Notes: a model not told the origin generated them from the letters alone. A DNA stretch of 64,000 bases from an uncultured Chthonomonadaceae bacterium (GCA_963817895.1 CAWFQB010000002.1:352001-416000); one strand, 5' to 3'. Counted from the first letter of the stretch, positions 10,239 through 61,451 are shown. Translations and numbers: made by a program.

Positions 10239-10285
10239 CAAACCGCGAAATACGCGAAGTAAACGAAAAGAAGACAAACAAGACT

Positions 10286-12118: not shown

Positions 12119-12168
12119 ATTTAACATACGAATATAGAAATCGTAGTTGATGTGTTAATAAACTCACA

Positions 12169-12197
12169 TTGACTTTATCTACGTCTTGCGATATAAT
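12169..12197 (+). promoter_or_regulatory. Sigma70-type promoter upstream of the DyP gene
   Basis: TTGACT-N17-TATAAT in an AT-rich intergenic region. Confidence 0.65.
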
Positions 12198-12282
12198 CCT
12201 TTTGCGTTCGGACGGATTATATATTGAAAACCTTACATCTGACAAAAAATATATAAATGCGTTCGTATAACAGGAGAACAGG

Positions 12283-13875
12283 ATGACATTCGATGGAGCT
12301 GGCATCAATCTGGAAAATATCCAGGGAAACATTCTCGGCGGTTTCTTGAAAGACCATCGCGAGATGTTGTTTGTAAACTTTTCGGACCCGGAGGGCGGGC
12401 GGGAATGGCTGGACGAGATGGCGGACAATATCTCCACCAGCGAAGAGGTGATCGCCTTCAACAAGCTGTTCAAGCTGATTCGCGCCAAAAAGGGGATGGA
12501 GGGCGTTGTCAAGGCGACGTGGACCAATATCGCGTTTACGTATTCCGGCCTACAGGCGCTTGGCATTTCGGACTACTACCTGAATCAGTTTCCCGATTCG
12601 TTCAAGCAGGGGATGGCGGCGCGGGCCAACCTGCTCGGCGATACCGGGCCAAGCGCGCCGGATCAGTGGGTGGGGCCGTTCGGCGACGCTGAACGCGGCG
12701 TTCATGCGGTGCTGATTGTCGAGGCGGATGATCCCCGCGATCTGGCGGAAGCGATTGAAGAGTATCAGGACATGATGGAGGAAAACGGCACGGTCAGCAT
12801 CGTCTTCGAGCAGTTCGGCGCGACGCTTCCCGAACCGCTTACCGGCCACGAGCATTTCGGTTTCAAGGACGGCGTTTCGCAGCCGGCCATTCGGGGCATT
12901 GACACGCCGGACGACCCGCAAAATCCCAATCAGGGGCATCCCGGCCAGGACATGCTGCATCCGGGCGAGTTCGTACTGGGCTACGCCACGCAGATCGGCG
13001 AACCGGCGCAGGGCGTGGACGGCCCCAACCCCAATCCGGGTACGCGCAGCGTCAGCGGCCCGCCCTGGACTAAGGAGGGTTCGTATCTCGTGTTCCGGCG
13101 ACTCGGCCAGAACGTGAAGGCCTTTCGGGAGAATGTGGAGTATCTGGCGAACGTGTCCTGCATCGAGGGCGCGACCGCTGACTTAATCGGCGCGAAAATG
13201 GTGGGCCGGTATCGCAGCGGCTGCCCGATGGAGCAACTGAAAAGTCAAACCGGAGAGTATACGCCCCCCTGCGTTGATCCCGGCATCGCCCACCCGCAGT
13301 CCGGTGACGACAATGCCATCAACAACTTCTTCGAGTATGGCGATGATCCTCTGGGCAACAACGTGCCACGCGCCGCGCACATTCGCAAGGCGTATCCGCG
13401 CGACCAGAGTGGAACCAAAGCAAGCGGCACGGACACGGAGAGCCGGACGCAAACGCACCGCCTGCTGCGGCGCGGCCTGCCTTACGGCGCTCCCTATGCG
13501 CCGGGGACCGAGGGCGGGGAAGAGGGGGATGAGCGCGGCCTGCTGTTCCTGTGCTACCAGAAGAGCATTGAAGACCAGTTCGAGTTTGTGCAGCGGGCGT
13601 GGGTGAATGACGCCAACTTCCCGTGCGCGGACGCGAAGGACTTCAAGGACGAGGACGGAAACCCGCTGTATCCGAACGGCCAGAATACCGCCGGGGATGG
13701 CGAAGACCCGATCATCGCCACGAGCGCGAGCGGCACGTTCCTGATAACGGACAGGAGCTGTGACGAGCGCGTAGACAACCTGACGCACTTCGTCACGACA
13801 ACGGGCGGCGACTACTTCTTCTCGCCCTCGATTTCCACGCTGATGGAGATCGCCGCCGACATGTACGACGCTTGA
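12283..13875 (+). CDS. DyP-type (dye-decolorizing) heme peroxidase
   Basis: IQGNIL, EHFGFKDGVSQP (GxxDG), AHIRKAYPRD (proximal His), LLRRG (distal Arg), QFEFVQ and GGDYFFSPS motifs. Confidence 0.92.
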   Translation: MTFDGAGINLENIQGNILGGFLKDHREMLFVNFSDPEGGREWLDEMADNISTSEEVIAFNKLFKLIRAKKGMEGVVKATWTNIAFTYSGLQALGISDYYLNQFPDSFKQGMAARANLLGDTGPSAPDQWVGPFGDAERGVHAVLIVEADDPRDLAEAIEEYQDMMEENGTVSIVFEQFGATLPEPLTGHEHFGFKDGVSQPAIRGIDTPDDPQNPNQGHPGQDMLHPGEFVLGYATQIGEPAQGVDGPNPNPGTRSVSGPPWTKEGSYLVFRRLGQNVKAFRENVEYLANVSCIEGATADLIGAKMVGRYRSGCPMEQLKSQTGEYTPPCVDPGIAHPQSGDDNAINNFFEYGDDPLGNNVPRAAHIRKAYPRDQSGTKASGTDTESRTQTHRLLRRGLPYGAPYAPGTEGGEEGDERGLLFLCYQKSIEDQFEFVQRAWVNDANFPCADAKDFKDEDGNPLYPNGQNTAGDGEDPIIATSASGTFLITDRSCDERVDNLTHFVTTTGGDYFFSPSISTLMEIAADMYDA

Positions 13876-41200: not shown

Positions 41201-43771
41201 CATGCCTGGCTGCGTCCTTTAGAAACCACGGAAGCCTATTTTCGAGTCGCATACCAATCCGGCGCGCAGATGGGGGACTTTTTCCATGCGGGTTGCGGGT
41301 GCAGCGGATTGGCGCAACACGCGCTTATGCAGGGCGCAGACTTGAATTCCGTGTTGGCGGAGTGTGAGCGCGGCATGGACTTTTTGGAACGGGTTCAGAA
41401 TCGGGAAAACCTCGGCACGCTGCTGGCGGTTCGGCAGGCGGTACGGTGTCTGCGGGGGGAAACCCACGCTCCCGACTCGTTTGCCGATGCGACCTTCGAC
41501 GAAGCCGCCTATGTCGAAGAGCTGAAAGGGTACGGCTCACCACATTTCGCGCACTATTACCATGTCAACAAGCTGCAAACGCTCGTCTTGTGGCGCGAAC
41601 ATGACGCGGCGTTGAACGTGGCGCGGGCTTCGTCCGCCTATTTGAAATCGTCCATCGGGATGCAGCATGCTGTGGAACACCATTTTTACGCGGGACTGCT
41701 TTATGCGGAATTAATCGCTCTGCGCCGCCCCGGCCCGCGCCGTCGCTGGCTGCAGACTCTGCGCGCCACAATCCGGCGGTTCCGGCAGTGGGCGCGAAAC
41801 TGCCCCGAAAATTTTCTGCATCGCGCTCTGCTGCTGGAAGCGGAACTGGCGCAAGTCACGGGACAGGATACAATCGCCGGGACGCGCTACGACCAGGCGA
41901 TTGAAGCCGCCGCGCAGCGCGGGTTTGCCCACCACGAGGCGCTTGCCAACGCGCTGTGCGGGCGCTGGCATCGGGCGCGGGGACGGATGCGTAACGCGCG
42001 TTTTTACCTGCGCGAAGCGGCGTATGGCTACCGGCGCTGGGGCGCGACCGCGATTGCGGACGCGCTCATCGAGGAGATCGGCGAATGGGTGTCCCGGGAG
42101 CAGAGCAGCGCGGAGGCCGCCGAGTCCACCAGGGCGGCGAGTGGCTCGACGCGCCACGACGCGCTAAATCTGGACATGGATACAGTGGTGAAAGCGGCGC
42201 AGGCGATTGCCAGCGAAGTGAAATTGTCTGAACTGCTGGCGCGGCTGCTGCATCTGGTCATGGAAAACGCGGGGGCAACGCGCGGTATTTTGCTCCTCCC
42301 GCGCGGCGGAGATTATGTGGCGCAGGCCGAGGGGAACGGCGCGGACATTCAGGTTAAATCCGGCTTGCCGCTTGCCGAGCATCCCGCTCTGGCGCGGTCA
42401 GTCGTTAATTATGTCGCGCGTTCGCGTGAAACCACGATTGTCAATCGTATGGGGCAGGACGCCCGATTTGCCGCCGACGCGTATTTACAGGCTGCCAGAC
42501 CGCGTTCCGTGTTGTGCGCCCCGCTCCTCAATCGCGGCGTTTTAAGCGGCATCCTCTATCTGGAAAACGGGTTGATTGAAGACGCTTTTACCGCTTCGCG
42601 CATCCAACTGCTGCAACTGCTTTCCGCGCAATTCGCTATTTCCATCGAAAACGCGCTGGCGTATGAAGTGCTGGAACAAAAGGTACAGGAGCGCACAGCG
42701 CAACTGGAAGCCCGCAACGCCCTGATACAGCAGATTTTCGGACGCTACAACACGCCGGAAGTTGTGGAGCGACTGCTGGAAGACCCCGGGGGGCTGAAAA
42801 TGGGCGGCGAAAAGCGCGAAGTGACCGCGCTAATTGCCGACCTGCGTGGGTTTGCCGCCTGCGCGGAGAGTCTCGCGCCCGACCAGGTGGTAACGCTGAT
42901 TAACAATTTTCTGCGGGTAATGACCGAAATCATTATTGCGCGCGGGGGAACAGTCAACGGACTTACGGGCGACGGCATGCTGGTGATATTCGGCGCTCCC
43001 CTCTCCTGTCCCGACCATGCCAATCGCGCGGTCAGGTGCGGCCTGGCGATGCAGCTTGCTATGGCGCAGGTAAATGAGTTCAATGCCGCGAATGGCCTGT
43101 CCCAGGTGCAAATGGGCATCGGCATCAGCACGGGCGAAGTGGTTGCGGGCAATATCGGCTCCCTGCAGCGCGCGTCTTACACGGTCATGGGAACCGCCGT
43201 CAATCTGGCCTCGCGTATTGAATCCGTAACTACAGGCGGACAGATTTTTATTTCCGAAGCCACGCTGACGCAGGCAGGCCCGGATGTAGAGATCGGCGCG
43301 CGGCTGGAAATCGAGGCCAAAGGCTTCCGTGGCAAAATTGCCATCTACGATACGCGCGGGGTCGCGGGCAGGGACAGCCTGCGCTTACCCGAAGAGACAT
43401 CCGAACTTATTCAGTTACCACACCCCATTGCCATTCGCTATACGCCCCTCAAAGACAAAAGCATGAGCGGCGAATCACAGGCGGGACGTATTACCTGGCT
43501 GTCCGAAGTCGAAGCGCATATCAGCGCGCCCAATCCGCCCCCGCCACTGACCGATGTGGCCGTCCGGCTGGCGCGGGAGGATGGGAGCGCGATAGACGCC
43601 CTGGCGTATGCTAAAGTGACAGCCGACGCCGCGCGAGAGGGAGCCGATTTTGTGTGCCGGTTCACCTCCGTGGAAACGGAAGCGCGCGATTTTTTGAATC
43701 TTGCCGTCATGCCATGCGCCCTCGTGAAAAATATAGAGGTAATAAAGGAGGAATTGACAACACAAAAGTGA
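38261..43771 (+). CDS. Ser/Thr kinase - AAA/STAND ATPase - TPR-like - GAF - class III cyclase; start uncertain, frameshifts near 38390 and 38970
   Basis: VVIK, HRD, GTLAYIAPEQTGR; LYGRE, GYSGVGKS, LDDLQW, GNPFF, F.HDRVQQ; GAF SVLCAPL..LYLEN; ADLRGF/GDG/AVNLASR. Confidence 0.88.
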
Positions 43772-43845
43772 ATAGAAGCATCGTAACTCATATCTTCAAA
43801 AACTACCCGCCGCAATACGCCGCGCTGTTCGCTGAAAGGGACTAC

Positions 43846-45696
43846 ATGAGCTATCTCGATGTACCGCGAATTCACATTGCGGGCCGGTTTTTTACCGACC
43901 CATCTTCCATTAACAATGACCCTGCCCATTATGACCCGAACTGCGAGCGCCCGTCACCCTGGCAAATGCCCAAAGGCAAGCACTACTTCAAACTCGTTGA
44001 CTGCGCTGTCCGCTCGGTACTGAACGATGTGGGCGCGTCTCCAACCGATGACCCGCTGATCGGAGCGCCGTTTCTAAGCACCGATTTGTTTGTTACGCCG
44101 CCCATGTTCCAGGAGAACGCGCCCTCTTCCGCAGCGAAAATGATTGATCTGGATGTGTACCAGCAGGGCGTATCCACGATTTACGGCCTACAGGTGCAGA
44201 TTGCTGTCAGCGAGACGGTTTCGCTCATCGGAAATGTACTGCCATCTCCGTCCCTGAACAGCTACACGTTCAGCCGCGTCCTGCCCACGCGCGGCTGGAA
44301 CGACGATTCGCAGCAGGCGAGCTACGGCAACGACATCAACGCCTGCGGCAATTTCCAAACTTGTATTCGCGTCCCCATTGCGAACTGGCCGGTAAATGCC
44401 TCGCCCGTCCTCGACCTTCTGCGCGCCAGAACCATTACCGAAAATGGCGACGTTCTGCTGGCCCTCAAATTTACCCTCGATGCTTTTAATAACGTGTATT
44501 TCGGCTGCCCTTCCGAAAATTGCTATCATGGCCGCTTGACGGGCTGTATCGGCCCGATGAAGGCCGGCGACCCGCTACAGGCTCCCGGCGCGCGCTGGCT
44601 GGCGGCCCGCGCGCTGCCTGCCAACGCGCCCTGGTTCGTGCCGACGTTCAATTCTGCGCCGTTTCAGGTGGACGCCACGCGCCGCAAACTGGTGGTGGAC
44701 CTTGCCAACAGCCTGTGCCTCGAAACCATCGGCGGCCCTCCGGTTGATCTGGGCGTGTTAAGCGCCGTGATGGGAGGGGAAGACGGACCGGTTACATTGG
44801 GCGCGCTGCAGTACGATCAATTCGGCTATGAAAATAATGCCGGAATCGCGGAACTGGATTTGACCGACGCGCAGGTACAGCAATTGGCGCATTCGCCGCT
44901 CGCTCTGGTCACCTCGCGGCAGGACATCGGCCCGCAGGCCGTGCTGTCGGAAGACCCTTCCGGGCTGTGGTGGGCGGTGGATACCCGTATTCTGCGCATG
45001 AGCAGCGAAGCGAACAGCGCAGCCAGTGTCGCGACGATTCGGGTGCATGCCACGCAATGGGGCTTGCCCGCTCCCCATGTCGCGCTGCAGGCGCAGGTGG
45101 TTCCCGTTCAGGGCACTACCCCGGGCGCGACCGTGCCGCCCACCTATGCGGGGGATACCTTCAATGCTGAGGGCGCGTTGACGGCCTCCATCACGCCGAC
45201 GGATTATGATGGTTACGCGCAATTGACCCTCAATGTCATCAAAGACCCTGGCTCCCGTACTCCCTGGCTGGACAGCCAACTCTACTTCGTCAATATTTAC
45301 AGGGACGCCCCGCAGCAGGGACAGGTTCAGGAACAGCAATTGTCGTGCCAGGTATGGGCGCGATACCCGGTCAATCCCAATCCGACCTGGGATGTGATTG
45401 CCGCCATGATGGCTGCGTATAACCGGTTATACCCGGCCATGAGGGAGATGATTGATCTGACGGATGAACACTCGTTCCGCGTATTCGCCTTCAATCCGCC
45501 CTGGTCTGTGCCGGACGGCATCACCTTCAACGTGCCAGCCGACTATAGCGTGGATGGTATCAACAGCGGCGCAATCCCGTTTTTCCTGACCCGCGATGGG
45601 GATGACCCGCGCTTTATGCCGCCCACTCGCGACCTGTCGCCCAATAAAATTCAGACCATTCTCAACTACATCAAGAACAATCCGCCGCAGTCGTAA
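43846..45696 (+). CDS. Hypothetical protein resembling the VioB N-terminal region, without a ferritin-like domain
   Basis: MSYLDVPRIHIAGRF..DPSSINND start, AKMIDLD, LYPAM and MPPTRDLS motifs recalled from VioB-like proteins; GAAAGGGA RBS. Confidence 0.6.
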   Translation: MSYLDVPRIHIAGRFFTDPSSINNDPAHYDPNCERPSPWQMPKGKHYFKLVDCAVRSVLNDVGASPTDDPLIGAPFLSTDLFVTPPMFQENAPSSAAKMIDLDVYQQGVSTIYGLQVQIAVSETVSLIGNVLPSPSLNSYTFSRVLPTRGWNDDSQQASYGNDINACGNFQTCIRVPIANWPVNASPVLDLLRARTITENGDVLLALKFTLDAFNNVYFGCPSENCYHGRLTGCIGPMKAGDPLQAPGARWLAARALPANAPWFVPTFNSAPFQVDATRRKLVVDLANSLCLETIGGPPVDLGVLSAVMGGEDGPVTLGALQYDQFGYENNAGIAELDLTDAQVQQLAHSPLALVTSRQDIGPQAVLSEDPSGLWWAVDTRILRMSSEANSAASVATIRVHATQWGLPAPHVALQAQVVPVQGTTPGATVPPTYAGDTFNAEGALTASITPTDYDGYAQLTLNVIKDPGSRTPWLDSQLYFVNIYRDAPQQGQVQEQQLSCQVWARYPVNPNPTWDVIAAMMAAYNRLYPAMREMIDLTDEHSFRVFAFNPPWSVPDGITFNVPADYSVDGINSGAIPFFLTRDGDDPRFMPPTRDLSPNKIQTILNYIKNNPPQS

Positions 45697-45734
45697 GAGG
45701 GCTGTCGGCTCGAATTTTTACGAGGATACATACT

Positions 45735-47285
45735 ATGCGCGGTTTCAAAACCTCTGTTGCCCTTGCTCTGCTGATTGTGTGTCTGTCAGGAATAGCGGCG
45801 CGTGGCCGGGCGCAAAACGATCCCAATAGCGACCCCAACATCGTTCCCAATGCGCTGCCGTATACGCTGACGTTTACTCCGATGACGTATGCGCCGAGTA
45901 CGCGGTATGCGGCTCTGCCCGCGCTGCACTCTTATCGCTCGGTTGTCACAAAAGACGGGAAGTGGCTGGTTCTGGGCGGACGCTACAATGCCGGTCTGCA
46001 CACGTTCAAAACGCCGGTGGCGGGCGTGAACAACTTTTCCAGCCCCAATAAATGGCTGTGGGTGATTGACCCGGAAAAGGGCGTGTTGGGCAAGTTCGAC
46101 GTGACGACCCTGCCGCCCGGCATGGCGCCGCTGTTTCAGGCGACCAATCAGGAGTCCTACTACGACCGCGCTAACGACCGGTTGTACGTGGTGGGCGGCT
46201 ACGGTCTGAATGGACAGGGCAGCTACGTCACGTTTAGCGCCATGATGCGCTTTTCGCCGACACTGGTGATTCAGGAGATACTCAGCGCGGACAGCAATGC
46301 CGTGAAGTCGCAGAAAATTCAGGGGATGGTGCAGCAGTTGCAGGACGACAATCTTGCGGTTACAGGCGGCGAGATGTTTCGGCTGAACGGCGTGTTTTAC
46401 CTCACATTCGGGCAAAAAGCGTCAGGCAAATATGATGCGTTCGGTGGTTCGCTCAACCAACAATACACCCAACAGGTGCGCTACTTCACCCTCAACCCCA
46501 ACGCGCCCGGCCTGTCCTTTTTGACGTTGCCGGTGGGAACGGCGCAAAAGCCCGAGTATCATCGGCGCGATGGCAACATCATGTCCACCATTGACCCGCA
46601 AACCGGAAACCAGCAGATCGGCGTGTTTGGCGGCGTATTTCCCGATGGCGTTATCGGAGCGTTCCCCAATCCCATCTACATTTCGCAGGATCGCTCCATC
46701 GTCATAGACACGGCGAACCAGTATTTCAGCGCGTATAACTGCCCCGTGATCGTGGCCTATGACCCGACAGGCAAGCGGACGTACCATACGTTCTTCGGCG
46801 GTATCAGCCACTACTTCTACAGCGAAACCGCCGCGCAGCAGGTGGTCTACAAGCTGGCGACGGGACAGGGGCGCAACGATGGCCTGCCGTTTATTCGCGA
46901 CATCAGCACGTTTATCCGTAAGGGCGACGGCACATGCGAAGAGTGGATTCTGCCGTCTCCTGTTCCCGGCAGCCTGATGCAGGGAACCGGCGCGGCGTTC
47001 ATGCCGGTCGCCTCGCTGATTGGCGGCGCGCTGGATGAGGAGGGCATTGTGTGGCTGAACAAACTAGCGCCGGAAAGCAGCCAGACTATCGGCTATATCT
47101 ACGGCGGCATCACCGCCCTCAACCCGTTCCCGACGATTCCCAACACGGGTACATCGGGAAGCAATACGGTCTACAAAGTGACGCTGAACATGTCGCCTTC
47201 CGGCGCGATTCCGGTGTCCAAAGCGACAGCGGCAGTGTCTAACGGCACGCCGCCTTTTACCCCGCCCGCTGCGGCGAACCGGTAA
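45735..47285 (+). CDS. Secreted protein, probable Kelch-like beta-propeller
   Basis: Signal peptide; recurrent hydrophobic-GG motifs (VLGG, VVGG, VTGG, VFGG, FFGG, IYGG). Confidence 0.7.
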   Translation: MRGFKTSVALALLIVCLSGIAARGRAQNDPNSDPNIVPNALPYTLTFTPMTYAPSTRYAALPALHSYRSVVTKDGKWLVLGGRYNAGLHTFKTPVAGVNNFSSPNKWLWVIDPEKGVLGKFDVTTLPPGMAPLFQATNQESYYDRANDRLYVVGGYGLNGQGSYVTFSAMMRFSPTLVIQEILSADSNAVKSQKIQGMVQQLQDDNLAVTGGEMFRLNGVFYLTFGQKASGKYDAFGGSLNQQYTQQVRYFTLNPNAPGLSFLTLPVGTAQKPEYHRRDGNIMSTIDPQTGNQQIGVFGGVFPDGVIGAFPNPIYISQDRSIVIDTANQYFSAYNCPVIVAYDPTGKRTYHTFFGGISHYFYSETAAQQVVYKLATGQGRNDGLPFIRDISTFIRKGDGTCEEWILPSPVPGSLMQGTGAAFMPVASLIGGALDEEGIVWLNKLAPESSQTIGYIYGGITALNPFPTIPNTGTSGSNTVYKVTLNMSPSGAIPVSKATAAVSNGTPPFTPPAAANR

Positions 47286-47297
47286 TGAATCCAACCG

Positions 47298-47537
47298 CTA
47301 TTCGTCTTCCGGCGCAATGTCCTCATCACCGCCGCCGAGCAGACTGCGGGCCTGCTGCAAGCGTTGAGAAGCCGCGTCGCCGCCCGCTTTGAGTTTCTCA
47401 ATATCGGTCAGCGACAGGTACACTTTCGCCGCGCCCTCCAGATCGGCGCCCTTCAAATCCAGCACGATCCACCCGTCCGGGTCGGTCTTGCCTTTGAATG
47501 TGCCGGTGAACTTGATACGGTTTTTGGGGAAAAGCAA
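47298..47537 (-). CDS. Small hypothetical protein or 5'-truncated fragment at the island edge
   Basis: Host-like GC-rich codons; TTG start next to the switch to AT-rich DNA. Confidence 0.45.
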   Translation of the reverse strand: MLFPKNRIKFTGTFKGKTDPDGWIVLDLKGADLEGAAKVYLSLTDIEKLKAGGDAASQRLQQARSLLGGGDEDIAPEDE

Positions 47538-47822
47538 CGGAGTTCCTCTGCGTGGCTAAAATAAGGGAGTCACATCTGCTACGAAAGTCTTTTGGTGGTT
47601 TCTTTGTACGCAGAAATAGTCGTCATCTTGTGAAGCGAGGTTTCATAAACGCCATACTGATGTAGTAACCCAAGTTGCTACCTTAAACCGTGTTTGAGAT
47701 AGCAACGTACCAAAAGTAGCAATATTCGCCAGAATCTTCCAGATGAGAATTAAGGTAGCAAATTGAATTAGTAGAATATATTAAAAACTATAACTTAGTT
47801 CTTGTTGTTGACGATGAATCTA

Positions 47823-49625
47823 CTAAAAACTGGTCGCATCAAATCGGCGTGAAGTCGTTTTTAGAAGCAAGGTGACAACTATATAGAGTGTCACGGCGAT
47901 TACAACAGTTATCCCACCAATTGCATAGATGCCTGGATTAAATCCTGACTTCATCTTGCCATTGATATACAAGCTTAACATTTGATTTGAACCGCTTAAG
48001 AATGATGACCTTACATAGTCATTAACCGAAAGCAAAATACCGATAATAAATGCACTGACGATGCCAGGCCATGTCAAACTAAAGAGAACTCGACGGCAGA
48101 TAAAGACTCGTGAGGCTCCCATTTCTCGTGCAACTGCAAACAATGTAGGATTCACACTACTATTCACAGCAAAAATAACTGCAACGCAAAAAGGTAACGC
48201 CCAAGCTATATGTGATGCAGCCACAAGTATAAGTGAGGCACCTTTCATGCCGCAGGATTTGTAAATCTTTTGTATTGCTTGAACGTAAGAATTTGCTGGC
48301 AGGAGAACTAATATACTTAGTCCACAAATTACAACAAAGCGCCACAACTGGTGCCACCATACCAATCCAATAATAAATGCCAAGGTTGCACAGAGAAACC
48401 CGACCGGCAACGCTATTTCAAGTGAGTTAATCCATGCTTGTCTTAACGTATCTCCTTCAAATACCTTCCAATACCAATGTAAACTCAACTCAAACTTTGA
48501 ACTGTTAATTACTCTATATGGCGCAATTGAAAGTATTAAGATCGAGCATACCGGTGAGAGTAGGAATAGCATGATTGCCGCCACTATTCCCCCTTCTAGG
48601 AGCGAAGAGGTAACTTGCCTGTAGTGTTGATGCACTGCCCTTATGGAAGGAATAAAAGTCTCAACATCATTCATTTTTCCAAGTTCGTTAGGTTGGTGTT
48701 CTGAAAGGGTGTTGCTGTCTGGGATAGACCTGCCTACATGGCGGAATAATAAACATCCCAACGCACCGCTGACCAGAAAACAAGCTATAAGTAACGAACT
48801 GAGAGCATGTACCGCAGCAAATTTGTTAGCGCTTTGCAGACCATTAATGAAAGCACTCAGACTTCTGTCTTGCTTTTCAAGTAGGGAAGGCTCCACAGAG
48901 TTTCCGAAAGCTAACCAGAAGGCGCAGAACCATCCAAAAAGAATACCGGGTGCAGCTACAGGTAGAACAATGCGGACGAGTCTCGTACCAGTATTGGCAC
49001 CTATTTCATCGCAGGCTATCCAAAAGCTGTTGCGGCTACTGGGTAAAGCAAGAACCACAGGAAAAACAACGAACGGCAGGGTGGCTGCTATTAAAGTGAT
49101 TACAATAGAAGTCCGAGTGTAAATCAGCCATCGAAGTGGGGTAGCATGTGGGATGGTTGAAGTCAAGAATGAGTTTACAAATCCATTAAGATTGAGAAGA
49201 TGCAACCATCCATATGAACGTGATGTGGCATTTACCAGAAATGGAACATTGAGTGTCATTAACAATGTCCACCGCCAGATTGCTGATTTGCGACGAACAA
49301 TAAAATCTGCAAGTGCTATGCCAATTATAATATCAATTGTGGCTACAATTACGCCCCGAAACACGAGTTCTGATAAAGCTGTGACATACTGCGGTTGAAG
49401 AATTTCCTTATACCCTTGCGTCGAACCCCATCCTACCTGCCGCAACCCATCCCAAGTTACCAAACTCTCGTGAAGGACTACAAACATGGGTATCAGACAC
49501 AAAAATAGAAGGCAGAGGCATGGAATAATAGCCATCGCACTATGCCAAAAGTTTCGGTAGCTATCTTTCATCTCACTCCTCAGAATAAACTCATGTGCCT
49601 GATCTACTATATGCAGATCAGGCAC
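47823..49625 (-). CDS. ABC permease, fused PotB+PotC-like domains
   Basis: Two permease halves, each with an EAA-like loop (IACDEIGA; VAREMGAS) and conserved LP(F) segments. Confidence 0.82.
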   Translation of the reverse strand: MPDLHIVDQAHEFILRSEMKDSYRNFWHSAMAIIPCLCLLFLCLIPMFVVLHESLVTWDGLRQVGWGSTQGYKEILQPQYVTALSELVFRGVIVATIDIIIGIALADFIVRRKSAIWRWTLLMTLNVPFLVNATSRSYGWLHLLNLNGFVNSFLTSTIPHATPLRWLIYTRTSIVITLIAATLPFVVFPVVLALPSSRNSFWIACDEIGANTGTRLVRIVLPVAAPGILFGWFCAFWLAFGNSVEPSLLEKQDRSLSAFINGLQSANKFAAVHALSSLLIACFLVSGALGCLLFRHVGRSIPDSNTLSEHQPNELGKMNDVETFIPSIRAVHQHYRQVTSSLLEGGIVAAIMLFLLSPVCSILILSIAPYRVINSSKFELSLHWYWKVFEGDTLRQAWINSLEIALPVGFLCATLAFIIGLVWWHQLWRFVVICGLSILVLLPANSYVQAIQKIYKSCGMKGASLILVAASHIAWALPFCVAVIFAVNSSVNPTLFAVAREMGASRVFICRRVLFSLTWPGIVSAFIIGILLSVNDYVRSSFLSGSNQMLSLYINGKMKSGFNPGIYAIGGITVVIAVTLYIVVTLLLKTTSRRFDATSF

Positions 49626-49637
49626 ACACTTGTGACG

Positions 49638-50849
49638 TCAAGCACTACGTAGCTTGCTCCACCACTCCTCATACAACTTATACTCCTTCGGCCGAGAGTT
49701 CTGCCAAAATGCCTGTCCACCTTGCTTCAGGAACTTGTCATGAACATGCTGTGCAGTCGCAGCTATGACTTTCGAGTCGAATTCTGATGGATTCTTGCCG
49801 GCGTAATCCACAGCCTTGTCCGTTGGGACAACATAGCCCCTGAGTTTAGACAATGCACACCCATAATACCCCCCCAACTCCCAGTTGGCAAACTGGTGCG
49901 CCAAATCTATTAGGTCACGAGACTTTGCGCCCGTGTGCAAAATCAGATCGTTGGACCAGCCCTCATACCCTTCTTTGGGTACAGCATACTGAGCATTCAC
50001 TCCGGCTTTCTGAGCAGCAAGAACAATAGGCTCCCACCCGGTCATTACCCACACCTCTTGGCTCTTTATGAGCTGTAGGCCGTCTTCCCATCCGTTCCAA
50101 AGACGGCGAAATTGACCGTCCTTTTTTTTCTTGATTAGAAACTCCATAACCACTCCGAGTTCATCGGGAGTAAGGTTACCAGGATCTTGAATTTTCGAGA
50201 TGGCGTTTTGTTTGAGATAGATCGCCGTGAAAATAGCACTGTTGATCCAAGCATCCTCCATTGAGGTCTTGCCCTTTAGTTTAGGATCAAATACAGCGGC
50301 ATAACTGTCAATTTTACCTACCTTATCGGGAAGGTAAATCATGGAGTCGGCATTGATAACGATTGGTAAACCGTATTGTTTTCCGTCGTATTTGGCATGG
50401 CGAATGTCTTGAGCCCAAGGCCAGACCGCCTGCCAGTTGGGAATTTTAGTTAAATCCCATGGAAGAATTTTGCCTGCTTGTGCCAGTTCTGCTTCAGCCC
50501 CACCTTGTAGACCGCCCAAGTCAAAGTCGTCAGCTACTGTGCCTGAGACCATCTGAGTAACAACTGGTCCTGCATCGTTGTTGTTGTCCTTGAACGTTAG
50601 TTTAACGTGCAAGTCCTGTTGTGCTTGTGCCCACGACTCAAGGTTGAGGGTGCCAGTACCGTACAACTTGAGTTCACGGATGCTGGTTACAAGCTTATCA
50701 GATGTAGCCGTACCAGAGTGGTTGTCGCCTCCACGACAACCACTCATTACTGCTGCAAGGCCGATGCCTGAATAGCCGAGTCGGCGAAGTAGGTCACGTC
50801 TTGATATATTGGAGTCGTAACCATGGTGCTGATCTTTGGGTAAGGTCAT
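49638..50849 (-). CDS. PotD/PotF-like substrate-binding protein with Tat-lipoprotein signal
   Basis: SRRDLL twin-Arg, MSGC lipobox; YAVPKEG and FDPKLKGK motifs. Confidence 0.85.
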   Translation of the reverse strand: MTLPKDQHHGYDSNISRRDLLRRLGYSGIGLAAVMSGCRGGDNHSGTATSDKLVTSIRELKLYGTGTLNLESWAQAQQDLHVKLTFKDNNNDAGPVVTQMVSGTVADDFDLGGLQGGAEAELAQAGKILPWDLTKIPNWQAVWPWAQDIRHAKYDGKQYGLPIVINADSMIYLPDKVGKIDSYAAVFDPKLKGKTSMEDAWINSAIFTAIYLKQNAISKIQDPGNLTPDELGVVMEFLIKKKKDGQFRRLWNGWEDGLQLIKSQEVWVMTGWEPIVLAAQKAGVNAQYAVPKEGYEGWSNDLILHTGAKSRDLIDLAHQFANWELGGYYGCALSKLRGYVVPTDKAVDYAGKNPSEFDSKVIAATAQHVHDKFLKQGGQAFWQNSRPKEYKLYEEWWSKLRSA

Positions 50850-50982
50850 CTTAATCCTCCTAAAAACTTTCTAAGTAGACCGAGGGCTAAAGTTCGTAGA
50901 TTTTACATCTCGAAAAACTACGAACTTAGTCCAATGCCCGCCTTAGTTCAACTCAATCCTTGTTCAATCCCTACATTGTTTA

Positions 50983-52131
50983 TCATGTCTGTAGTGGTAC
51001 CGCATAAGCATCAGACAAAGAGAATGAGAATGATATGGGGTCGCCGGGATTGTACTCTACTTCCATCACACGTCGCGGCACATCACAAATGACTAAGTGC
51101 TTATCAATTTGTCCAAGCATGGTAATGTGGATGCGCTTATAAAATCCGCGGAACTGCACAGTACGCACAATTCCACTAAGGTTGATGTAATTATTATTGT
51201 TATTACGTAAACAAATATCCTCTGCCCTAACTAAAATGGCACATTGTTTGTCATATATATGGTTATATTCTTGAGGCAGATGCAACACAACGTTTAAATG
51301 GGCAGATGTGAATTTGCCACTAAGGTCGCATTCACCCTCCAATATAGTATGACCGTCCAAAATTCTTGCGGCTTCCACACATGGCGGGCGTAATACTATA
51401 TCCTCTGTGTTGCCGTAAGCAATTAATTTTCCATGATTTATTATTGCTAAATGACTACATAGCGACATAGCGAAGTCATGATCATGTGTAACGGTAAGAA
51501 TTGTGGGACGGTTATTCCCATTGGAAACTTCTGTTAGCAACAGAGCCAAGTTGCTTTTCTGCTCTGCATCTAGTGACGCTGTTGGCTCATCCAAAAGTAG
51601 AATGGATGGTTGCATAATAAATGCTCTAGCTAAAGCAGTACGTTGTTTCTCTCCTCCACTAATACTAACTGGTTTATGAAATCTTTGATCCCATATACCG
51701 AAACGCTTCAAGTATTCATTCACGCGGGCTTCAGGAGTTGCTTTTATTTCAGTTGGAATGGCATTTTGACGTTTTAATATTTTGAAAAGTTTCAAGAACA
51801 CATCTCTGATGCTCTTCCTGGAAACAGTCAACGGGAACTCTACATTTTTAAAAACAGTGAGATTGGGAAACAGAGCGTGATCCTGAAATACAGTTATGAC
51901 GCTACGTTCGCCAGGTACATGCTGAGTTATATCACAACTGTCAAGTAAAATATTACCATTAGATACTGGAAGGTGTCCTGCTACAATACTCAGCAGTGAG
52001 GTTTTACCTGCACCACTAGGCCCTATAATGCCAACATGTGCACCTTTTTCAACTTTCAAATTTATATCGTCAAGCTGAAATTTATTGTAACCATAGCTAT
52101 AAGACACCTTCCTAATTTCAAGGTAAGCCAC
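50983..52131 (-). CDS. PotA-like ABC ATPase with TOBE tail
   Basis: GPSGAGKT, VFQDHALFP, ISGGEKQR, LLLDEP and VTHD motifs. Confidence 0.9.
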   Translation of the reverse strand: MAYLEIRKVSYSYGYNKFQLDDINLKVEKGAHVGIIGPSGAGKTSLLSIVAGHLPVSNGNILLDSCDITQHVPGERSVITVFQDHALFPNLTVFKNVEFPLTVSRKSIRDVFLKLFKILKRQNAIPTEIKATPEARVNEYLKRFGIWDQRFHKPVSISGGEKQRTALARAFIMQPSILLLDEPTASLDAEQKSNLALLLTEVSNGNNRPTILTVTHDHDFAMSLCSHLAIINHGKLIAYGNTEDIVLRPPCVEAARILDGHTILEGECDLSGKFTSAHLNVVLHLPQEYNHIYDKQCAILVRAEDICLRNNNNNYINLSGIVRTVQFRGFYKRIHITMLGQIDKHLVICDVPRRVMEVEYNPGDPISFSFSLSDAYAVPLQT

Positions 52132-52768
52132 TAGTATTCTCCATTTTTGGATCTACAATGATGTATGGTAATCGTTGCTTCGCTACAGGTAGCAGTTCAA
52201 GGTACTTTCCTTCATAGATTGCAACAATTATATCCATCTCTGCGGCAGGCCCAAATTCTAAATCAACTATGTTCTGGTCTGCAATAAAGAGCTTCATTGC
52301 AATTTCTTCAATGATGTAAGGTGCAAGACGTACCATCATGGGATGTCGTTTGCTCGAAATTCCATGCTGGCGTAGTAAGGGCTGGAGATTCCGAAATATC
52401 TGGTTGTGACAATGACTCGCGAACTCTCGCGAATGTGTATACACATTATTTACTGTCTCCAGATAATATATGAAGTTAGGTAAATTTGCATAATTAGTCC
52501 ACGAATTTATTTTTATATTGGGAAGATTTGAAGCCATCAATGCTGAACTTAAATCTTTGCAACGCTTCTGAACGTGCGCTTCAGCAGAAGCGATTGAAAG
52601 GTGGCAAAGATGTGACTGATTGGTTATTTCTGGTTTGTCAAGAAGACAAATAATTAGCTCATCGCACATACTCTGTGTATGCCGTGCAACATAACTCAAA
52701 TAATGTGGTGTCATGACGTACGCGCCTAGACTAACTAAGATTATACCTTCTTTTTTATTATTTATCAT
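52118..52768 (-). CDS. Divergent tRNA-dependent cyclodipeptide synthase (CDPS)-like protein
   Basis: 216 aa; IILVSLG (cf. GxS motif), IICLLD....N, W...Y...V...Y....EF...C, YIIEEIA (cf. YxxxExP). Confidence 0.6.
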   Translation of the reverse strand: MINNKKEGIILVSLGAYVMTPHYLSYVARHTQSMCDELIICLLDKPEITNQSHLCHLSIASAEAHVQKRCKDLSSALMASNLPNIKINSWTNYANLPNFIYYLETVNNVYTHSREFASHCHNQIFRNLQPLLRQHGISSKRHPMMVRLAPYIIEEIAMKLFIADQNIVDLEFGPAAEMDIIVAIYEGKYLELLPVAKQRLPYIIVDPKMENTSGLP

Positions 52769-54587
52769 CGATATGCCTCGAGTAGAATGTGTTTATTGTT
52801 GCGTACTTTTGCCAGAATCTGTGTGGACGTCCGTCATTTTTATAGTTTTTCCATTGTTGTGGATCCGATATGCTGACCGCGCCTTTATCGAACAAATTCC
52901 TTTTAGCAATTTGGCTGAGACCAGCCGCATTTGCTATATTTGCATCAAAGCAGGATTGAATCTTATCCAAGCTCCTTACATTGTGGAAGTTGGCCCCACT
53001 TAAGTCTGCAAACTCAAAATTTGCGCCTCGTAATGATGTAAAACTGAAGTTAACATAACGCGCTGATATAAAACTGAGGTTCGCGTCATCAAGAAGGGCA
53101 TTTTGAAAGTTCGCACCATCAAGATTGGCTCCCTTAAAATCAGAAAACTGTAGATGGGCCATCTGAAGGAAAGCATTCTGAAAAGAGGCATTAAGAAAGA
53201 AAGCTCCAACACCAAGTGGATGTTCATCACTGTCCGCATGAACATTACTCAAATCGGCATCATCAAAGCAGGCGTTAAAGAACTTAGCCCCGTCGATGCG
53301 TGAGCCACGTAATCTTGTCATGCGTAAGTCACAGTTACGAAAATCCGCGTTTGTGAGAATAGTATCAACTAAATAAGCTTCGACAAGAGAAGAGTGTTCA
53401 AAGATAGCATTTGTTAAGCGTGCGTTGGAGAAATCAGCATCATCCAGAATAGACAACGCAAATGTTGAATTTTGAAGATTTGCTCCCTTAAATAATCCTC
53501 CCTCAACATAGCTTCGTTGAAAACTGGCACCAACTAAATTGTAGTATTCAAGATTTAGTTTTGCGAAGCGCGTCCTTTCAAACAATTGTGCAGGATTATC
53601 ATACTTATTGCGCACAGATTGTAATGGCTTTGACCACACCCAAGCCAAGCCATTTCGAGACGTTTCACTACGTTTAGGTTGACCTACTCCATACCAACTT
53701 TCGGGACGTATGGTAGTTAGCATGTCTACAACCGCCTCGGACTTATCAGGTGATAGCATCGATGCTACATTTTCAGTACGGTTCTTTTTTTCATGTAATG
53801 GGCGCATACTCCTAGCTTGTAGTTCTTCAAGAGTAACAGGAACTCCACGCTTCATAAACGTTTGTACGAGATGTTTAACTTCATCTGCGTAAAGGGCATG
53901 AGTGTGCATACGTCCGCTCAATACTTCACGAACTCCATCTACTACATTGATGCGAACGGAGTCAGGTACTTGACGTGTCATCATAACTGGAACGCGACTA
54001 AGAGAAGCGATGCGTCGTTGCTCGGTTGTACTTCCAATGTCATCTGCCAGACGGGTAAAAGAGCGTTCAGCATTATCTATCATTGAAATACGATTTTGGA
54101 ATTGGTAAGTTAAAATAGCAACCAATATGCCGAAGGCACTGCCAACTGTGAGTAGTGCCTTGCCGAGCATTTGATAACCCTCCGGGCTACTAAAGCTCTT
54201 CCAAAAGTGTTGCCACCAACCTGCAAGCATACTTTTCTTCATGCGACACCACATACTGCGAAGAAGCACTGGTACATTGCTCTTTATTGAAACCCACACA
54301 TCTCCCATCTTCTTTCTACACTTTGCAAGTCCCTTTATGTGTGTAGATTTAAGCCGTATGATACTTGGCATAACTATTTTATTCATCTTGTTTTGATGAG
54401 GAGTTTGAGCAATTCTCTCATCTTGTATGTTCTGAGTTGCAGGTAGTTCAACCCGAATTACATTATTCGACGTTGTTTCAGGAATGACTACTTGAGATGA
54501 GACATGAACAGTATGAGTGTTGTTAGAGTTCCCATGTACCTCATCTCTATGTTGTGCTTCTACAGTATTTTTTTGTGAGTTTTCCAT
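52758..54587 (-). CDS. Membrane-anchored pentapeptide-repeat protein
   Basis: One TM helix; long run of A(D/N)(F/L)xx pentapeptides in the C-terminal half. Confidence 0.85.
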   Translation of the reverse strand: MENSQKNTVEAQHRDEVHGNSNNTHTVHVSSQVVIPETTSNNVIRVELPATQNIQDERIAQTPHQNKMNKIVMPSIIRLKSTHIKGLAKCRKKMGDVWVSIKSNVPVLLRSMWCRMKKSMLAGWWQHFWKSFSSPEGYQMLGKALLTVGSAFGILVAILTYQFQNRISMIDNAERSFTRLADDIGSTTEQRRIASLSRVPVMMTRQVPDSVRINVVDGVREVLSGRMHTHALYADEVKHLVQTFMKRGVPVTLEELQARSMRPLHEKKNRTENVASMLSPDKSEAVVDMLTTIRPESWYGVGQPKRSETSRNGLAWVWSKPLQSVRNKYDNPAQLFERTRFAKLNLEYYNLVGASFQRSYVEGGLFKGANLQNSTFALSILDDADFSNARLTNAIFEHSSLVEAYLVDTILTNADFRNCDLRMTRLRGSRIDGAKFFNACFDDADLSNVHADSDEHPLGVGAFFLNASFQNAFLQMAHLQFSDFKGANLDGANFQNALLDDANLSFISARYVNFSFTSLRGANFEFADLSGANFHNVRSLDKIQSCFDANIANAAGLSQIAKRNLFDKGAVSISDPQQWKNYKNDGRPHRFWQKYATINTFYSRHIDDK

Positions 54588-54753
54588 TCTAAACTCCCCA
54601 ATATTTAATCGCACTACAAACTCGAATGTTGTGACCTGCCTTCTATTGCTTCTACGCTCATAAAGTCCTAAGTAATTTTAACATGATATTCCTTAAAAAT
54701 CAATAGGTTTCCAATTTTTTTATCCGGTGGTGTATTTTGATCAACGTTAAACA

Positions 54754-55338
54754 CTAAAATATGCCATCACCAACCACTGTAATTATCCTCGCCAGCGACA
54801 TGACCGTGCCAAGACACCAGCGAACCGCGTCTATCAGGCGATGCCGCGTGATGTTCTTTTGTTCGATGAAATCGCCGTAGAATTGGTTCTGGTCAACGTA
54901 ACTGCCGAACTCGATCAGGGCGTCGGCAAACACAGGCGGGACGCCCACGCCGAGCGCGGTTAAAATGCGCGCGAACAGGTCGAGCGTGTTGGCGATGATT
55001 TTGCGCTCGTCGGCGGACTGCGATTGCAGCAGAAACAGTGTTTGCGAGATGTCAATCAGATAGACATTGCGCAGCGAGAGTTCCTTAAATTCCGCCTGAA
55101 TGTTCGCCAGTTTCAGAGCCGTTTGCGCAAGGCTGATGTCCGCGAAGAGAACAACCTGTCCATCAGCGATCAGCGGCTGCATTTGCCCGTCCTGCTCAAT
55201 GAGAAAGGTGAAAAAGTCGGGCCGGTCGCGCCTGCCGTCCAGCCGCAGGCCGGTCAAAAAGAAGGTTGCGGTGGACTCAGAATTGGCTTCGTTACCAGCT
55301 TCAAAGGGTAATGGGGTTGTATTTTCATCGGACTGCAT
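54754..55338 (-). CDS. Hypothetical protein
   Basis: Open ~194-aa frame with host-like codons; last codons lie in AT-rich DNA. Confidence 0.65.
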   Translation of the reverse strand: MQSDENTTPLPFEAGNEANSESTATFFLTGLRLDGRRDRPDFFTFLIEQDGQMQPLIADGQVVLFADISLAQTALKLANIQAEFKELSLRNVYLIDISQTLFLLQSQSADERKIIANTLDLFARILTALGVGVPPVFADALIEFGSYVDQNQFYGDFIEQKNITRHRLIDAVRWCLGTVMSLARIITVVGDGIF

Positions 55339-58948: not shown

Positions 58949-59360
58949 AGGCAGCCCTCGACCCTCACGCATTTCTCATCGGACGTATGCCTTCTAATTG
59001 GCCGCATACTGTCACGCCGGGATTACGCGCGCGTAGTTTGCAGAAGTTGCCTGCAAAAGCATACGCGCGGATTGTGGGCGAAATATGACGCCCGGATGCA
59101 GCAATATGGACGTCCGGCGCGTAACAATATACAATTCAAAACAGGTCGGGGCTATTTTTGGCCCCTGTCACGTTTGCCGCAGGCGCTTTGTCTGTGGAAT
59201 AACGATGCGTTTTCGCGGGGCGCAGCCCCCTGACACTCTGCGCCGTGCGGAAACCAGAGCCGAACTTTATTCGGACGGTGAATAGTTGAAGACGAGAGCA
59301 GAACACGCAAAGCCCGGTTCTTTCGATCAGGCTGTGACCACCCAACCTAAAAACCACGCG

Positions 59361-61451
59361 ATGGTTACTTCTTCCCCTTCCGAAGTCTCCTCCCGGCCCC
59401 GGACACTCTCCTCAGTTTCCGGCAATGTGGCTGTCTCCCATGCTCTGACGACGGAAACCGTCTCGCTGGAAGCCGTTCGCCACGCCATTACGGGCGCGCA
59501 GCACTATCTGCTGGATCGGCAGGAGCCGGAGGGCTACTGGGTCGCCGAACTGGAAGGCGATACCATCCTCGAAAGCGAGTATATTCTGCTCCTGCAGTTT
59601 CTGGATCGCCGCGATCCGGAGAAATTTCGCAAACTCGCCAAATACATTCGCAGCAAGCAGCATCCGGAAGGCTACTGGTCTATCTATCCCGGCGGCCCGC
59701 CGGATGTCAGCGCGTCCGTGAAAGCCTATTTCGCCTGCAAACTGGCCGGGCATAAGGAGAACGAGCCGTTTATGCGCCGCGCCCGCAACGCCATTCTCGA
59801 AGAGGGCGGCGTGACGCAGTGCAATACCTTCACCAAACTCTACCTCTCCATGTTCGGGCAGTACGACTGGCGCGGCGTTCCGACCATTCCGCCGGAAGCC
59901 GTGCTGATGCCCAAGTGGTTCTACTTCAATATCTACAACATGTCCTCGTGGTCGCGGGCGATTCTGGTTCCGCTTGCCGTGATGAACGCCACGCGCCCGC
60001 AGCGTCCCATTCCCGATAACGCGGGCATACCGGAACTGTTCGTGGGCGGGCGCGACCGCAAGCGGATGCGTGCTGTCGTGGGACCGCAAGCCGCTCACCT
60101 GGCGCAACGTGTTCCTGGTCATGGACAAAATCCTCAAGCTCTACGATGCCAGCCCCGTCAAGCCGTTCCGCAAACTGGCGCTGAAGCGGTCACTGGAATG
60201 GCTGCTGGAGCGCGAAGAGAACAGCGGCGGACTGGGCGCGATTTTCCCCGCCATGACGCACGCGATCATGGCCTACAAGTGCATGGGCTATGCCGGACAA
60301 CCATTGGGCGATCTGCAAAGAACTGGCGGAACTGGCCGCGTTCGAGATCGAAGAAGACGACACGATCCGCCTGCAGCCCTGCGTGTCGCCGATCTGGGAT
60401 ACGGCCATCGTCATCAATTCGCTGGTCGACAGCGGCTATGCCGCCGACAGCGAAGCGGTGCAGCAGGCGGCGGAATGGCTGCTGTCCAAGCAGACCACGC
60501 GCAAGGGCGACTGGGCGGTGAAAGTGCCCAATGTCGAGCCGGGCGGCTGGTACTTCGAGATGGAAAACGAGTACTATCCGGATGTGGACGACACCATCAT
60601 GGTGCTGATGGGCCTGTACAAGGCCTACTGTCCGAATGGCGAGCACTGGACGGAAGCGCCCGCCGCATGTCCGCGAAGTCGATGCGCAAGGGGCTGGACT
60701 GGGTCTTCGCCATGCAGAACAGGGATGGCGGCTGGGGCAGTTTCGACAAAGACAACAACAAGACGCTGTTCCAGTACGTGCCCTATGCCGACCACAACGC
60801 GATGCTCGATCCCTCCTCCGCCGACATCACCGCCCGCACGCTGGAAATGTGTCCTACTTCAGCATCGGAAACGCATCCGAATGGGGCCGCGATGTGCAAC
60901 GCGCCCTGGACTATCTCTACCGCGAGCAGGAAGCGGACGGCTCCTGGTTCGGCCGCTGGGGCGTGAACTATCTGTACGGGACGTGGCAGGTGCTGCGCGG
61001 GCTGGCGCGGTATCGGCGAGGATATGCAGTCCGAGCGGATTCAGCGCGCCGTGCGCTGGCTGCACTCCGTGCAGAACGAGGATGGCGGCTGGGGCGAAAC
61101 CTGCCAGTCCTACGATCCCGAACATCCGAAAGCCAACGGGCCAAGCACGCCGTCGCAAACCGCCTGGGCGCTGATGGGCCTGTTCAATGCGGGCGATCTG
61201 GACAGCCGCGTTCGTGCAGCGCGGGCTGGACTACCTGCTGAACAATCAGGACGAGCGACGGAACCTGGGAAGAGGAGTGGTTCACGGGAACCGGCTTTCC
61301 CCGCGTGTTCTACCTGCGCTACCACTACTACCGGCACTATTTCCCGCTCTGGGCGCTGGCGCAGTACCATACGTTTGTTACCGGCGAACCCTGCGACGGC
61401 CCCGCCAACAGCAAAGCGCATGGGGGCAGGTTCGCCAATTTGGAAGTGTAG
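59361..61451 (+). CDS. shc: Squalene-hopene cyclase, multiple frameshifts
   Basis: QW repeats, QPCVSPIWDT, YPDVDDT (DxDD), WFGRWGVNY.YGT and GTGFPRVFYLRY motifs. Confidence 0.93.

Follow-up and report, generated by a model that had tools for sequence, protein, structure and literature searches.

A candidate system for a small amide signal: an enzyme of predicted cyclodipeptide synthase fold encoded with an ABC importer in an uncultured Chthonomonadaceae bacterium

Gene content of the operon and the predicted fold of its enzyme

The 64,000-nucleotide stretch of an uncultured Chthonomonadaceae genome analysed here (CAWFQB010000002.1:352001-416000; hereinafter the window, with positions counted from its first letter) contains an operon of five co-oriented genes on AT-rich DNA, as stated in an earlier note made from the sequence alone; all five open reading frames (ORFs) lie on the minus strand. 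They encode a pentapeptide-repeat protein, an enzyme with the predicted fold of cyclodipeptide synthases (CDPS) and the components of an ATP-binding cassette (ABC) transporter:

52758-54587, minus strand: membrane-anchored pentapeptide protein (ATG at 54587 with GGGGAG upstream; in-frame GTG at 54614)
52118-52768, minus strand: CDPS-fold enzyme, 216 aa (TIGR04539, AlphaFold, Foldseek and VIA-align)
50983-52131, minus strand: PotA-type ABC ATPase with a TOBE domain (Pfam, NCBIfam and alignment)
49638-50849, minus strand: solute-binding lipoprotein with a presumed twin-arginine-like leader and an invariant Cys38, which we take to be in a lipoprotein motif
49592-49628, minus strand: 16-pair hairpin between the binding-protein and permease genes
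47823-49625, minus strand: fused PotB-like and PotC-like permease (NCBIfam PotB at residues 28-240, PotC at 341-591)

The overlaps of 11 and 14 nt between the first three genes that the note reported are located at 52758-52768 and 52118-52131, respectively, and both overlapped downstream starts have GAGG or GGAG directly upstream. The permease probably starts at the ATG at 49571, which has AGGAG upstream and lies behind the hairpin; the latter is possibly an mRNA-stabilising or attenuating stem. The two permease halves, fused in the window, are separate genes in most homologous loci; 11 hydrophobic segments were detected in the fused protein, and its PotB and PotC scores are both far below the NCBIfam cut-off. 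The operon encodes all parts of a type I ABC importer, i.e., a binding protein, two permease halves and an ATPase in which the Walker A, Q-loop, signature, Walker B, D-loop and H-switch motifs are all intact by alignment.

The 216-aa enzyme has no match in Pfam, PF16715 included, and matches TIGR04539 below the cut-off (E 1.6e-4; 21.3 bits against a cut-off of 45); among 26 homologues scanned, one (P0045) passes the PF16715 cut-off. The best Atlas clusters for this protein carry the CDPS family on 10-41% of their members, and a profile of 58 homologues retrieves solved CDPSs with E-values down to 2.5e-22. The AlphaFold model (predicted local distance difference test score, pLDDT, 96.5) yields CDPS matches in Foldseek (TM ~0.74, E 3.5e-9), and in VIA-align the top 10 rows are all CDPSs (Z 21.1 to 13.8), with tyrosyl-tRNA synthetase lower, at 12.7. 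The model and the profile alignments point to the Rossmann CDPS fold that resembles class-Ic aminoacyl-tRNA synthetases, in agreement with the earlier note, which had called the enzyme CDPS-like. The nearest solved structure is 9GUN, a putative CDPS of Porphyromonas gingivalis (Z 21.1, root-mean-square deviation 2.5 A over 196 residues, 18% identity), for which no descriptive paper was found in open-access PubMed Central (PMC) or bioRxiv, followed by BcmA (9J61), BtCDPS (6ZTU) and Fdum-CDPS (5OCD), all grouped here with the XYP subfamily. Other fusions of the CDPS-like domain are those of P0112, where a Ser/Thr kinase precedes it, and P0106, where DUF1232 follows it.

Active-site columns were counted over 104 aligned rows (112 proteins, with 8 shorter than 150 aa left out). 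Relative to AlbC, the window residues map as S13 = S37, D44 = position 68, Y151 = Y178, E155 = E182, G173 = Y202 and P174 = P203. S13 aligns with the serines of 9GUN, 5OCD, 3OQH and 9J61, and the S37 equivalent is Ser in 95 of the 96 rows with a residue in this column. The E182 equivalent is Glu in all 102 rows with a residue; in the Y178 column, 86 of 102 rows have Tyr and 16 have Phe, and Asp occupies position 68 in 88 of 102. In ParcuCDPS, D58, which is equivalent to D68 by the present mapping, activates the serine (PMC7613923). The catalytic set is retained in a family of 23-54% identity.

The exception is Y202, which is reported to be strictly conserved in active CDPSs and required for cyclisation (PMC5935735; also PMC11580168 and PMC13062777). 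In the register set by E-x-x-P, G173 of the window enzyme aligns with the Y of EIYP in 9GUN and of EVYP in 5OCD, a mapping derived from profile alignments rather than atom-level superposition. This position is Tyr in one of the 104 rows (P0108, an XYP-like outlier), in none of the 38 fusions and in none of the 21 locus rows. A Tyr is found one place earlier in 22 of the 104 rows (16 of the 21 locus rows), where it could in principle compensate for Y202; the window protein has F172-G173 there. With A16, G173 and P174, the enzyme shows neither the NYH signature (N40, H203) nor the XYP signature (P203), P203 being present in 57 of the 104 rows without the accompanying Y. The family has its own characteristic residues, namely, the invariant E47, N50, Q123-x-F-x-N127-L-Q-P130 and E177-M178; N50 is kept in 97 of 102 rows and by offset corresponds, in an approximate mapping, to N72 of Nbra-CDPS, which contacts A76 of the tRNA (PMC13062777).

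Because Y202 is lost whereas S37, Y178 and E182 are kept, the enzyme is, as judged by these residues, neither an NYH nor an XYP CDPS, and because the acylation residues are kept in the absence of Y202, it is predicted to act as a CDPS up to the acyl-enzyme. The earlier note had noticed neither this loss nor the regulator variants described below. By the present mapping, its P1 motif is I-L-C-L-W-M-K-E, which has no match among the rows of the published table in the consulted part of PMC5816076; therefore, no product can be predicted, with the bulky residues at 35 and 67 giving a weak hint at a small first amino acid.

The linked importer, its ligand and the variable first gene

The association of the enzyme with the transporter is conserved. 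In a library clustered at 50%, 41 of 111 enzyme homologues run on into a PotA-like ATPase (Pfam ABC_tran was confirmed on all 7 fusions tested), with approximately 10 gains or losses of the fused state on a quick tree. A motif scan of metagenomes yielded 70 loci, of which 19, including four duplicate pairs, encode the enzyme family and 51 are chance matches to the pattern, none of these with a binding protein or permease. The metagenome set without duplicates, together with L002 and L107, gives 17 distinct loci, the window excluded; 16 of these were found via the enzyme and are not biased to the transporter, and L107, found via the binding protein alone, holds the complete gene set. The ATPase is next to or fused with the enzyme in 16 of the 17 loci (9 fused, 7 separate), and where the contig reaches far enough, the binding protein is next in 15 of 15 and the permease is present in 12 of 12. 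This agrees with the dedicated importer proposed in the earlier note, which had named as fatal to its idea either the lack of a CDPS/Rossmann fold match or the lack of co-occurrence with the transporter; both the fold and the co-occurrence were found. Also as noted there, no tailoring genes lie inside the operon in the loci read.

The one locus in which the ATPase is neither next to nor fused with the enzyme is L002, where the copy at 9661-12743 is cut by a DDE transposase gene directly after the CDPS-fold domain and the pentapeptide gene is a fragment; the binding protein was not found in the genome that carries this locus and was found in 1 of 401 genomes of its phylum. As an indirect pointer to co-occurrence, the length of the longest contig is the same for seven enzyme homologues as for a listed homologue of the binding protein, one of the seven (10,745) being L037. 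The enzyme genes of two near-twin loci, L045 and L085, differ synonymously at 10 codons and non-synonymously at 3. Compared with the window proteins, full-length binding proteins are 52-62% identical, enzymes 26-42%, ATPases 29-51% and permeases 22-33%; the binding protein is the most conserved part of the system, a trait of its whole family that is not peculiar to CDPS loci.

The operon is patchy in its distribution, and its neighbours are often mobile or conflict genes (integrases, a relaxase, AbiEii, Fic and CHAT-TPR). A low-GC group of loci (L046, L048, L051/L062, L054 and L061), which we would guess to be probably Bacteroidota, has a short ATPase without TOBE and Phe at the Y178 position; L048 lies among integrase, relaxase and coupling-protein genes and L051 beside AbiEii/DUF6088. 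A search of the metagenome contigs with P0002 gave no match, nor did searches of plasmids with the enzyme and with the ribbon-helix-helix (RHH) regulator described below, or of viral contigs with the binding protein; none of the 13 matches of the enzyme motif in viral contigs is real. A scan of a genome collection returned 1 locus from 76 matches with a pattern that covered 17 proteins and hence is no measure of rarity. Among the CDPS-like proteins looked up, 17 of 20 are in single-member clusters.

The earlier note had suggested a polyamine or another amine as the ligand of the importer, and many of the 120 homologues of the binding protein that were listed, of 646, are annotated as spermidine/putrescine binders. 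This suggestion is not supported. In the alignment with Escherichia coli PotF, which is of modest confidence (hhalign probability 68), the pocket residues W37, D39, E185, D247 and D278 (pocket list from PMC8666671) correspond to T65, T67, A205 (or N203), I275 and N300, and the sole pocket equivalents kept are those of W244 and F276. The loss of these five residues argues against a polyamine binder of the PotD/PotF type, and the annotation of the homologues calls for correction given that the window protein has no polyamine pocket; the pocket region carries other conserved acids.

The nearest kin of the binding protein are found in operons for cyclic-amide hydrolases. Among plasmids, 19 records match it at 50-54% identity, with the next matches at 34% or below. 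All 5 of the 19 that were opened encode a LuxR-type regulator, hydantoinase/oxoprolinase B and A, an ATPase, the binding protein and two permeases, and no CDPS-like gene was found in the 9 plasmid regions examined. These operons, on plasmids of Aminobacter, Leisingera, Rhizobium and Pararhizobium, share the binding-protein family (51-62% identity) and the order ATPase, binding protein, permease, permease with the window operon, and differ from it in having ATP-dependent ring-opening enzymes in place of the CDPS-fold gene; the binding protein of Aminobacter MDW-2 is WP_067968010.1. The best structure matches of these enzymes are the N-methylhydantoinases 7HK5 and 6YRA, and many such hydantoinase/oxoprolinase enzymes have been speculated to be lactamases or cyclic dipeptide hydrolases (PMC6061476). 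Four second-tier plasmid records adjoin genes for pyroglutamyl peptidase I, an Asp/Glu racemase family protein, or a short-chain dehydrogenase/reductase together with a polysaccharide deacetylase.

In phylogenetic trees, the binding proteins of the CDPS type and the hydantoinase type group tightly as a single family whose long stem has support 97, and we claim nothing further. A nesting of the hydantoinase type inside the CDPS type was considered and given up, as its position shifted in a second tree and a single CDPS clade was not rejected by the approximately unbiased test (p 0.19); the frameshifted L103 was left out of the second tree and of the identity figures. The hydantoinase-side clade also holds P0166, P0154, P0233 and P0235 from Rokubacteria, Mesorhizobium and other groups, which are in clusters of 8 to 48 members. 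Because the nearest kin of the binding protein sit behind hydantoinase/oxoprolinase genes, the ligand can be proposed by analogy, as a well-pointed inference, to be a cyclic amide.

The gene in the first position of the operon is variable. The pentapeptide protein of the window (PF00805, E 5e-28) consists of 609 aa, with a C-terminal repeat domain, a conserved cap and a single hydrophobic segment, which covers residues 150-168 when the protein is read as 618 aa (by hydropathy and by alignment with 4 homologues). A protein of this type occupies the first slot in 6 of the 17 loci, with one of these a fragment and one cut by the contig end; among the 16 loci whose first slot lies on the contig, 10 have unrelated genes in its place. 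In 4 loci, the slot holds an RHH (Pfam RHH_1) protein with a ligand-binding fold and in 4 others, all low-GC, a weakly related protein with no recognised DNA-binding domain; the remaining loci have a CitMHS-type transporter (1), an unassigned fragment (1) or a first slot that lies off the contig (1). The transporter is that of L089 (932-2816), where it is accompanied by a 196-aa protein and which is the only locus with a possible exporter.

The suggestion in the earlier note that the pentapeptide protein confers gyrase immunity is not supported. Gyrase protection of the Qnr, MfpA, McbG and AlbG type is the work of soluble proteins of about 200 aa that consist almost entirely of repeats, whereas the window protein is three times the size of Qnr or MfpA, membrane-anchored, far from universal in this slot and below both NCBIfam cut-offs (41 bits against 240 for Qnr; 39 against 360 for MfpA). 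An accessory role on the envelope side is more likely than gyrase protection.

The model of an RHH-type protein (P0238, pLDDT 84.6) matches best SsuA (E 1.5e-9), and also the CmpC/NrtC regulatory domains and Thi5. Proteins of this type have no hydrophobic segment and are taken to be cytoplasmic; they can be read as ligand-binding regulators. P0238 has 23 homologues, with no Pfam family for the ligand-binding part and no usable match in the Atlas; the low-GC type is related to it by 14-17% identity and a profile match (E 5e-5). Such a regulator is also encoded in the cultured Novosphingobium resinovorum (BV97_01123, WP_036523888.1).

Possible functions of the operon

We tentatively favor, while rating it somewhat short of probable, a reading under which the operon is the synthase, importer and sensor of a small untailored amide signal, the activity being a prediction. 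The CDPS-fold enzyme would use aminoacyl-tRNA, as the equivalents of S37, D68, Y178 and E182 suggest, and produce a single small amide without tailoring, likely a cyclic dipeptide or a related lactam, with ring closure occurring without Y202, possibly via the invariant E47 or spontaneously after release. The product would leave the cell passively and be recaptured by the adjacent predicted importer, and the ligand-binding regulator co-encoded in many homologous loci would read it as a signal, with the rhizobial operons that combine the same binding protein with hydantoinase/oxoprolinase acting as consumers of the same or a similar molecule. We prefer this reading because it accommodates two pointers that are independent of each other: the fold is a peptide-cyclising one, and the binding protein is shared with cyclic-amide hydrolases. 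The patchy spread beside mobile and conflict genes also fits a shared-signal module more than core catabolism.

Several observations weigh against it. The cyclising Y202 is absent, so that ring closure in its absence has to be assumed; no exporter is encoded in the operon; and the window's own copy carries no regulator. A catabolic operon would equally combine an importer, an enzyme and a ligand-sensing repressor. The five hydantoinase operons all come from related Alphaproteobacteria, i.e., are not independent, and do not establish the substrate. Finally, the pocket motif at 298-301 differs between the groups (W-S-N/I-D versus W-G-N-N), and therefore their ligands may differ. A more ambitious version, a complete mobile signalling circuit with a tyrosine-less third branch of CDPSs, a cyclic-amide importer, an RHH/periplasmic-fold repressor and Alphaproteobacteria that destroy the signal via hydantoinase/oxoprolinase, appears doubtful; if true, it would supply a cyclodipeptide importer, receptor and degrading enzyme together.

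The lost tyrosine and the fusion are best accounted for by a different activity, which we consider unlikely overall, namely, a tRNA-dependent transferase that would load an amino acid or dipeptide on S13 and pass it to an imported solute, with a cyclic amide or peptide as the acceptor; this is a variant of another idea of the earlier note, in which the acceptor was a polyamine. Neither ring closure nor Y202 would be needed, what has been kept is precisely the acylation set and what has been lost is the residue for cyclisation (roles from PMC5935735), no exporter is required, and fusion of the enzyme to the cytoplasmic face of the importer, which recurs among the homologues as described above, would channel the acceptor. 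Adjacent overlapping genes, however, can fuse without channelling, a good nucleophile is lacking in any lactam or diketopiperazine that has no amine or hydroxyl side chain, and no downstream user of the modified product is encoded.

Slightly less likely is a scavenging unit in which the CDPS fold works in reverse, with the serine opening an imported cyclic dipeptide or lactam in place of hydantoinase/oxoprolinase. Such ring opening best explains why the CDPS-like gene and the hydantoinase A/B pair share the slot directly before the ATPase, and is in line with the catabolic layout and the retained Ser/Asp pair; diketopiperazine-opening enzymes were termed unknown in 2013 (PMC3852281). By microscopic reversibility, however, it should need the Y202 proton relay as well, the sister operons expend ATP on such chemistry, and the approximate counterpart of the tRNA contact N72 of Nbra-CDPS (PMC13062777), N50, is nearly always kept. 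The predominance of single-member clusters among the CDPS-like proteins, against the much larger clusters of the four hydantoinase-side binding proteins, also speaks against scavenging.

The last two explanations fit less well than transfer or ring opening. The CDPS-fold domain might be a non-catalytic module that regulates the ATPase and gates uptake in response to charged tRNA or a dipeptide, which we regard as quite improbable: the frequent N-terminal fusion to the ATPase, the loss of one catalytic residue and the analogy with the established regulatory domains of importer ATPases (CmpC/NrtC are among the fold matches of the RHH type) would be compatible with such a role, but a pure binding domain need not keep the nearly invariant serine, its aspartate partner and E182. 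More improbable still is a conflict system, in which the enzyme product would be antibacterial or serve as an alarm molecule, with immunity provided by the pentapeptide protein, e.g., by gyrase protection, as pentapeptide immunity exists for other antibiotics: the island location and the conflict and mobile genes near other loci are in its favor, whereas PADLOC 2.0 gives no match for the permease, binding protein, enzyme or pentapeptide protein and generic ATPase matches only, on two fusions, the large membrane-anchored pentapeptide protein is missing from most visible first slots, and an importer would be counterproductive for a toxin producer.

Whichever of these explanations is true, acylation machinery that is kept while a 'strictly conserved' tyrosine is dropped implies a chemistry not yet described for this fold. 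One conserved family of binding proteins connects the CDPS-fold enzyme and the importer with a ligand-binding regulator and with an orphan enzyme for ATP-dependent ring opening, such that a single ligand screen could identify the molecule for all four components.

The insertion that carries the operon and its relation to known systems

The operon is part of a low-GC block, which with two host repeats makes up the following features:

47537-54777, no strand: insertion with the operon, ~7.2 kb, GC 0.42 (GC rank and empty site in the congener G002)
50871-50947, no strand: 77-bp palindromic host repeat between the ATPase and binding-protein genes, with copies in the genomes G001 and G002
47662-47766, no strand: dispersed host repeat of ~100 bp with inverted ends, just downstream of the operon, with copies in G001 and G002

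The GC content is 0.423 across 47551-54800 compared with ~0.57 for the contigs, the lowest among the 7,387 7-kb windows of the 7.48-Mb genome. In G002, the two flanks (window 47299-47536 and 54778 onward) abut across ~68 nt; because they are joined there without the operon, the block is an insertion absent from this congener. No integrase or transposase is encoded among the five island genes, no terminal direct repeats were found at the island, and the window contains no tRNA gene that could have served as the target. Searches of 60 relatives for the enzyme family, and of 400 other genomes from the host phylum for the binding protein, gave no match.

The two repeats inside the island are different dispersed palindromic elements of the host. 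The 77-bp repeat, which likely entered after the arrival of the island, has two 97%-identical copies elsewhere in the host genome, and the ~100-bp repeat has 13 further genome matches, most of them near full length, at 72-86% identity. The presence of both suggests that the island has been resident long enough to gather host repeats. To the left (43000-47298) are the end of an AAA-GAF-guanylate-cyclase protein, a 680-aa protein without a Pfam match and a kelch-like secreted protein; because none of these genes has a match in G001 or G002, the site holds a second insertion, of host GC, with 47299-47536 being the part common with G002. Elsewhere in the window, the ORF at 59286-60521, the start of which we take to resemble squalene-hopene cyclase, seemingly loses its frame near residue 290, a possible frameshift or sequencing error.

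No description of the operon was found in the open-access PMC and bioRxiv literature, and the consulted portions of two neighbourhood surveys (PMC5767969 and PMC2922099) do not mention it; the former notes, in Burkholderia, a CDPS operon that includes pumps for the uptake and export of siderophores. With XYP CDPSs, the window enzyme shares the fold and the equivalents of S37, Y178, E182 and P203, with D68 as in ParcuCDPS. It differs from them in having no Tyr at 202, in scoring below the hidden Markov model cut-offs and in its new E47, N50, NLQP and EM motifs, and its operon differs in the fixed link to an ABC importer and the lack of tailoring enzymes, on which characterised CDPS clusters centre. 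The transporter shares its architecture with PotABCD and PotFGHI and matches their profiles weakly, all its NCBIfam Pot scores being far below cut-off.

Fusions of CDPS and ABC domains have been mentioned by Gondry et al. (2018; PMC5816076), where, in the supplement, they correspond to two NYH CDPSs, OGY85379.1 and OGI43181.1. In these, as in the fusions of the window family, the CDPS domain is N-terminal to the ABC domain. These proteins are of the NYH type; their P1 motifs read VGLAWFLY and IGFAWFLY, and the ABC domain spans ~250 aa. In the window family, the residue at position 35 is bulky, Y202 is absent, and the enzyme comes with a PotA/TOBE ATPase as part of a full importer.

A signalling role of cyclic dipeptides in bacteria is widely described (PMC11610984), and the operon would offer a handle on the uptake, sensing and breakdown of such small peptide signals by bacteria. 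The logic of the proposed circuit, i.e., a small signal, an ABC importer and a cytoplasmic regulator, would be similar to that of two known systems, with no homology claimed: LuxS with Lsr and Phr with Opp are likewise circuits that make, import and sense a signal.

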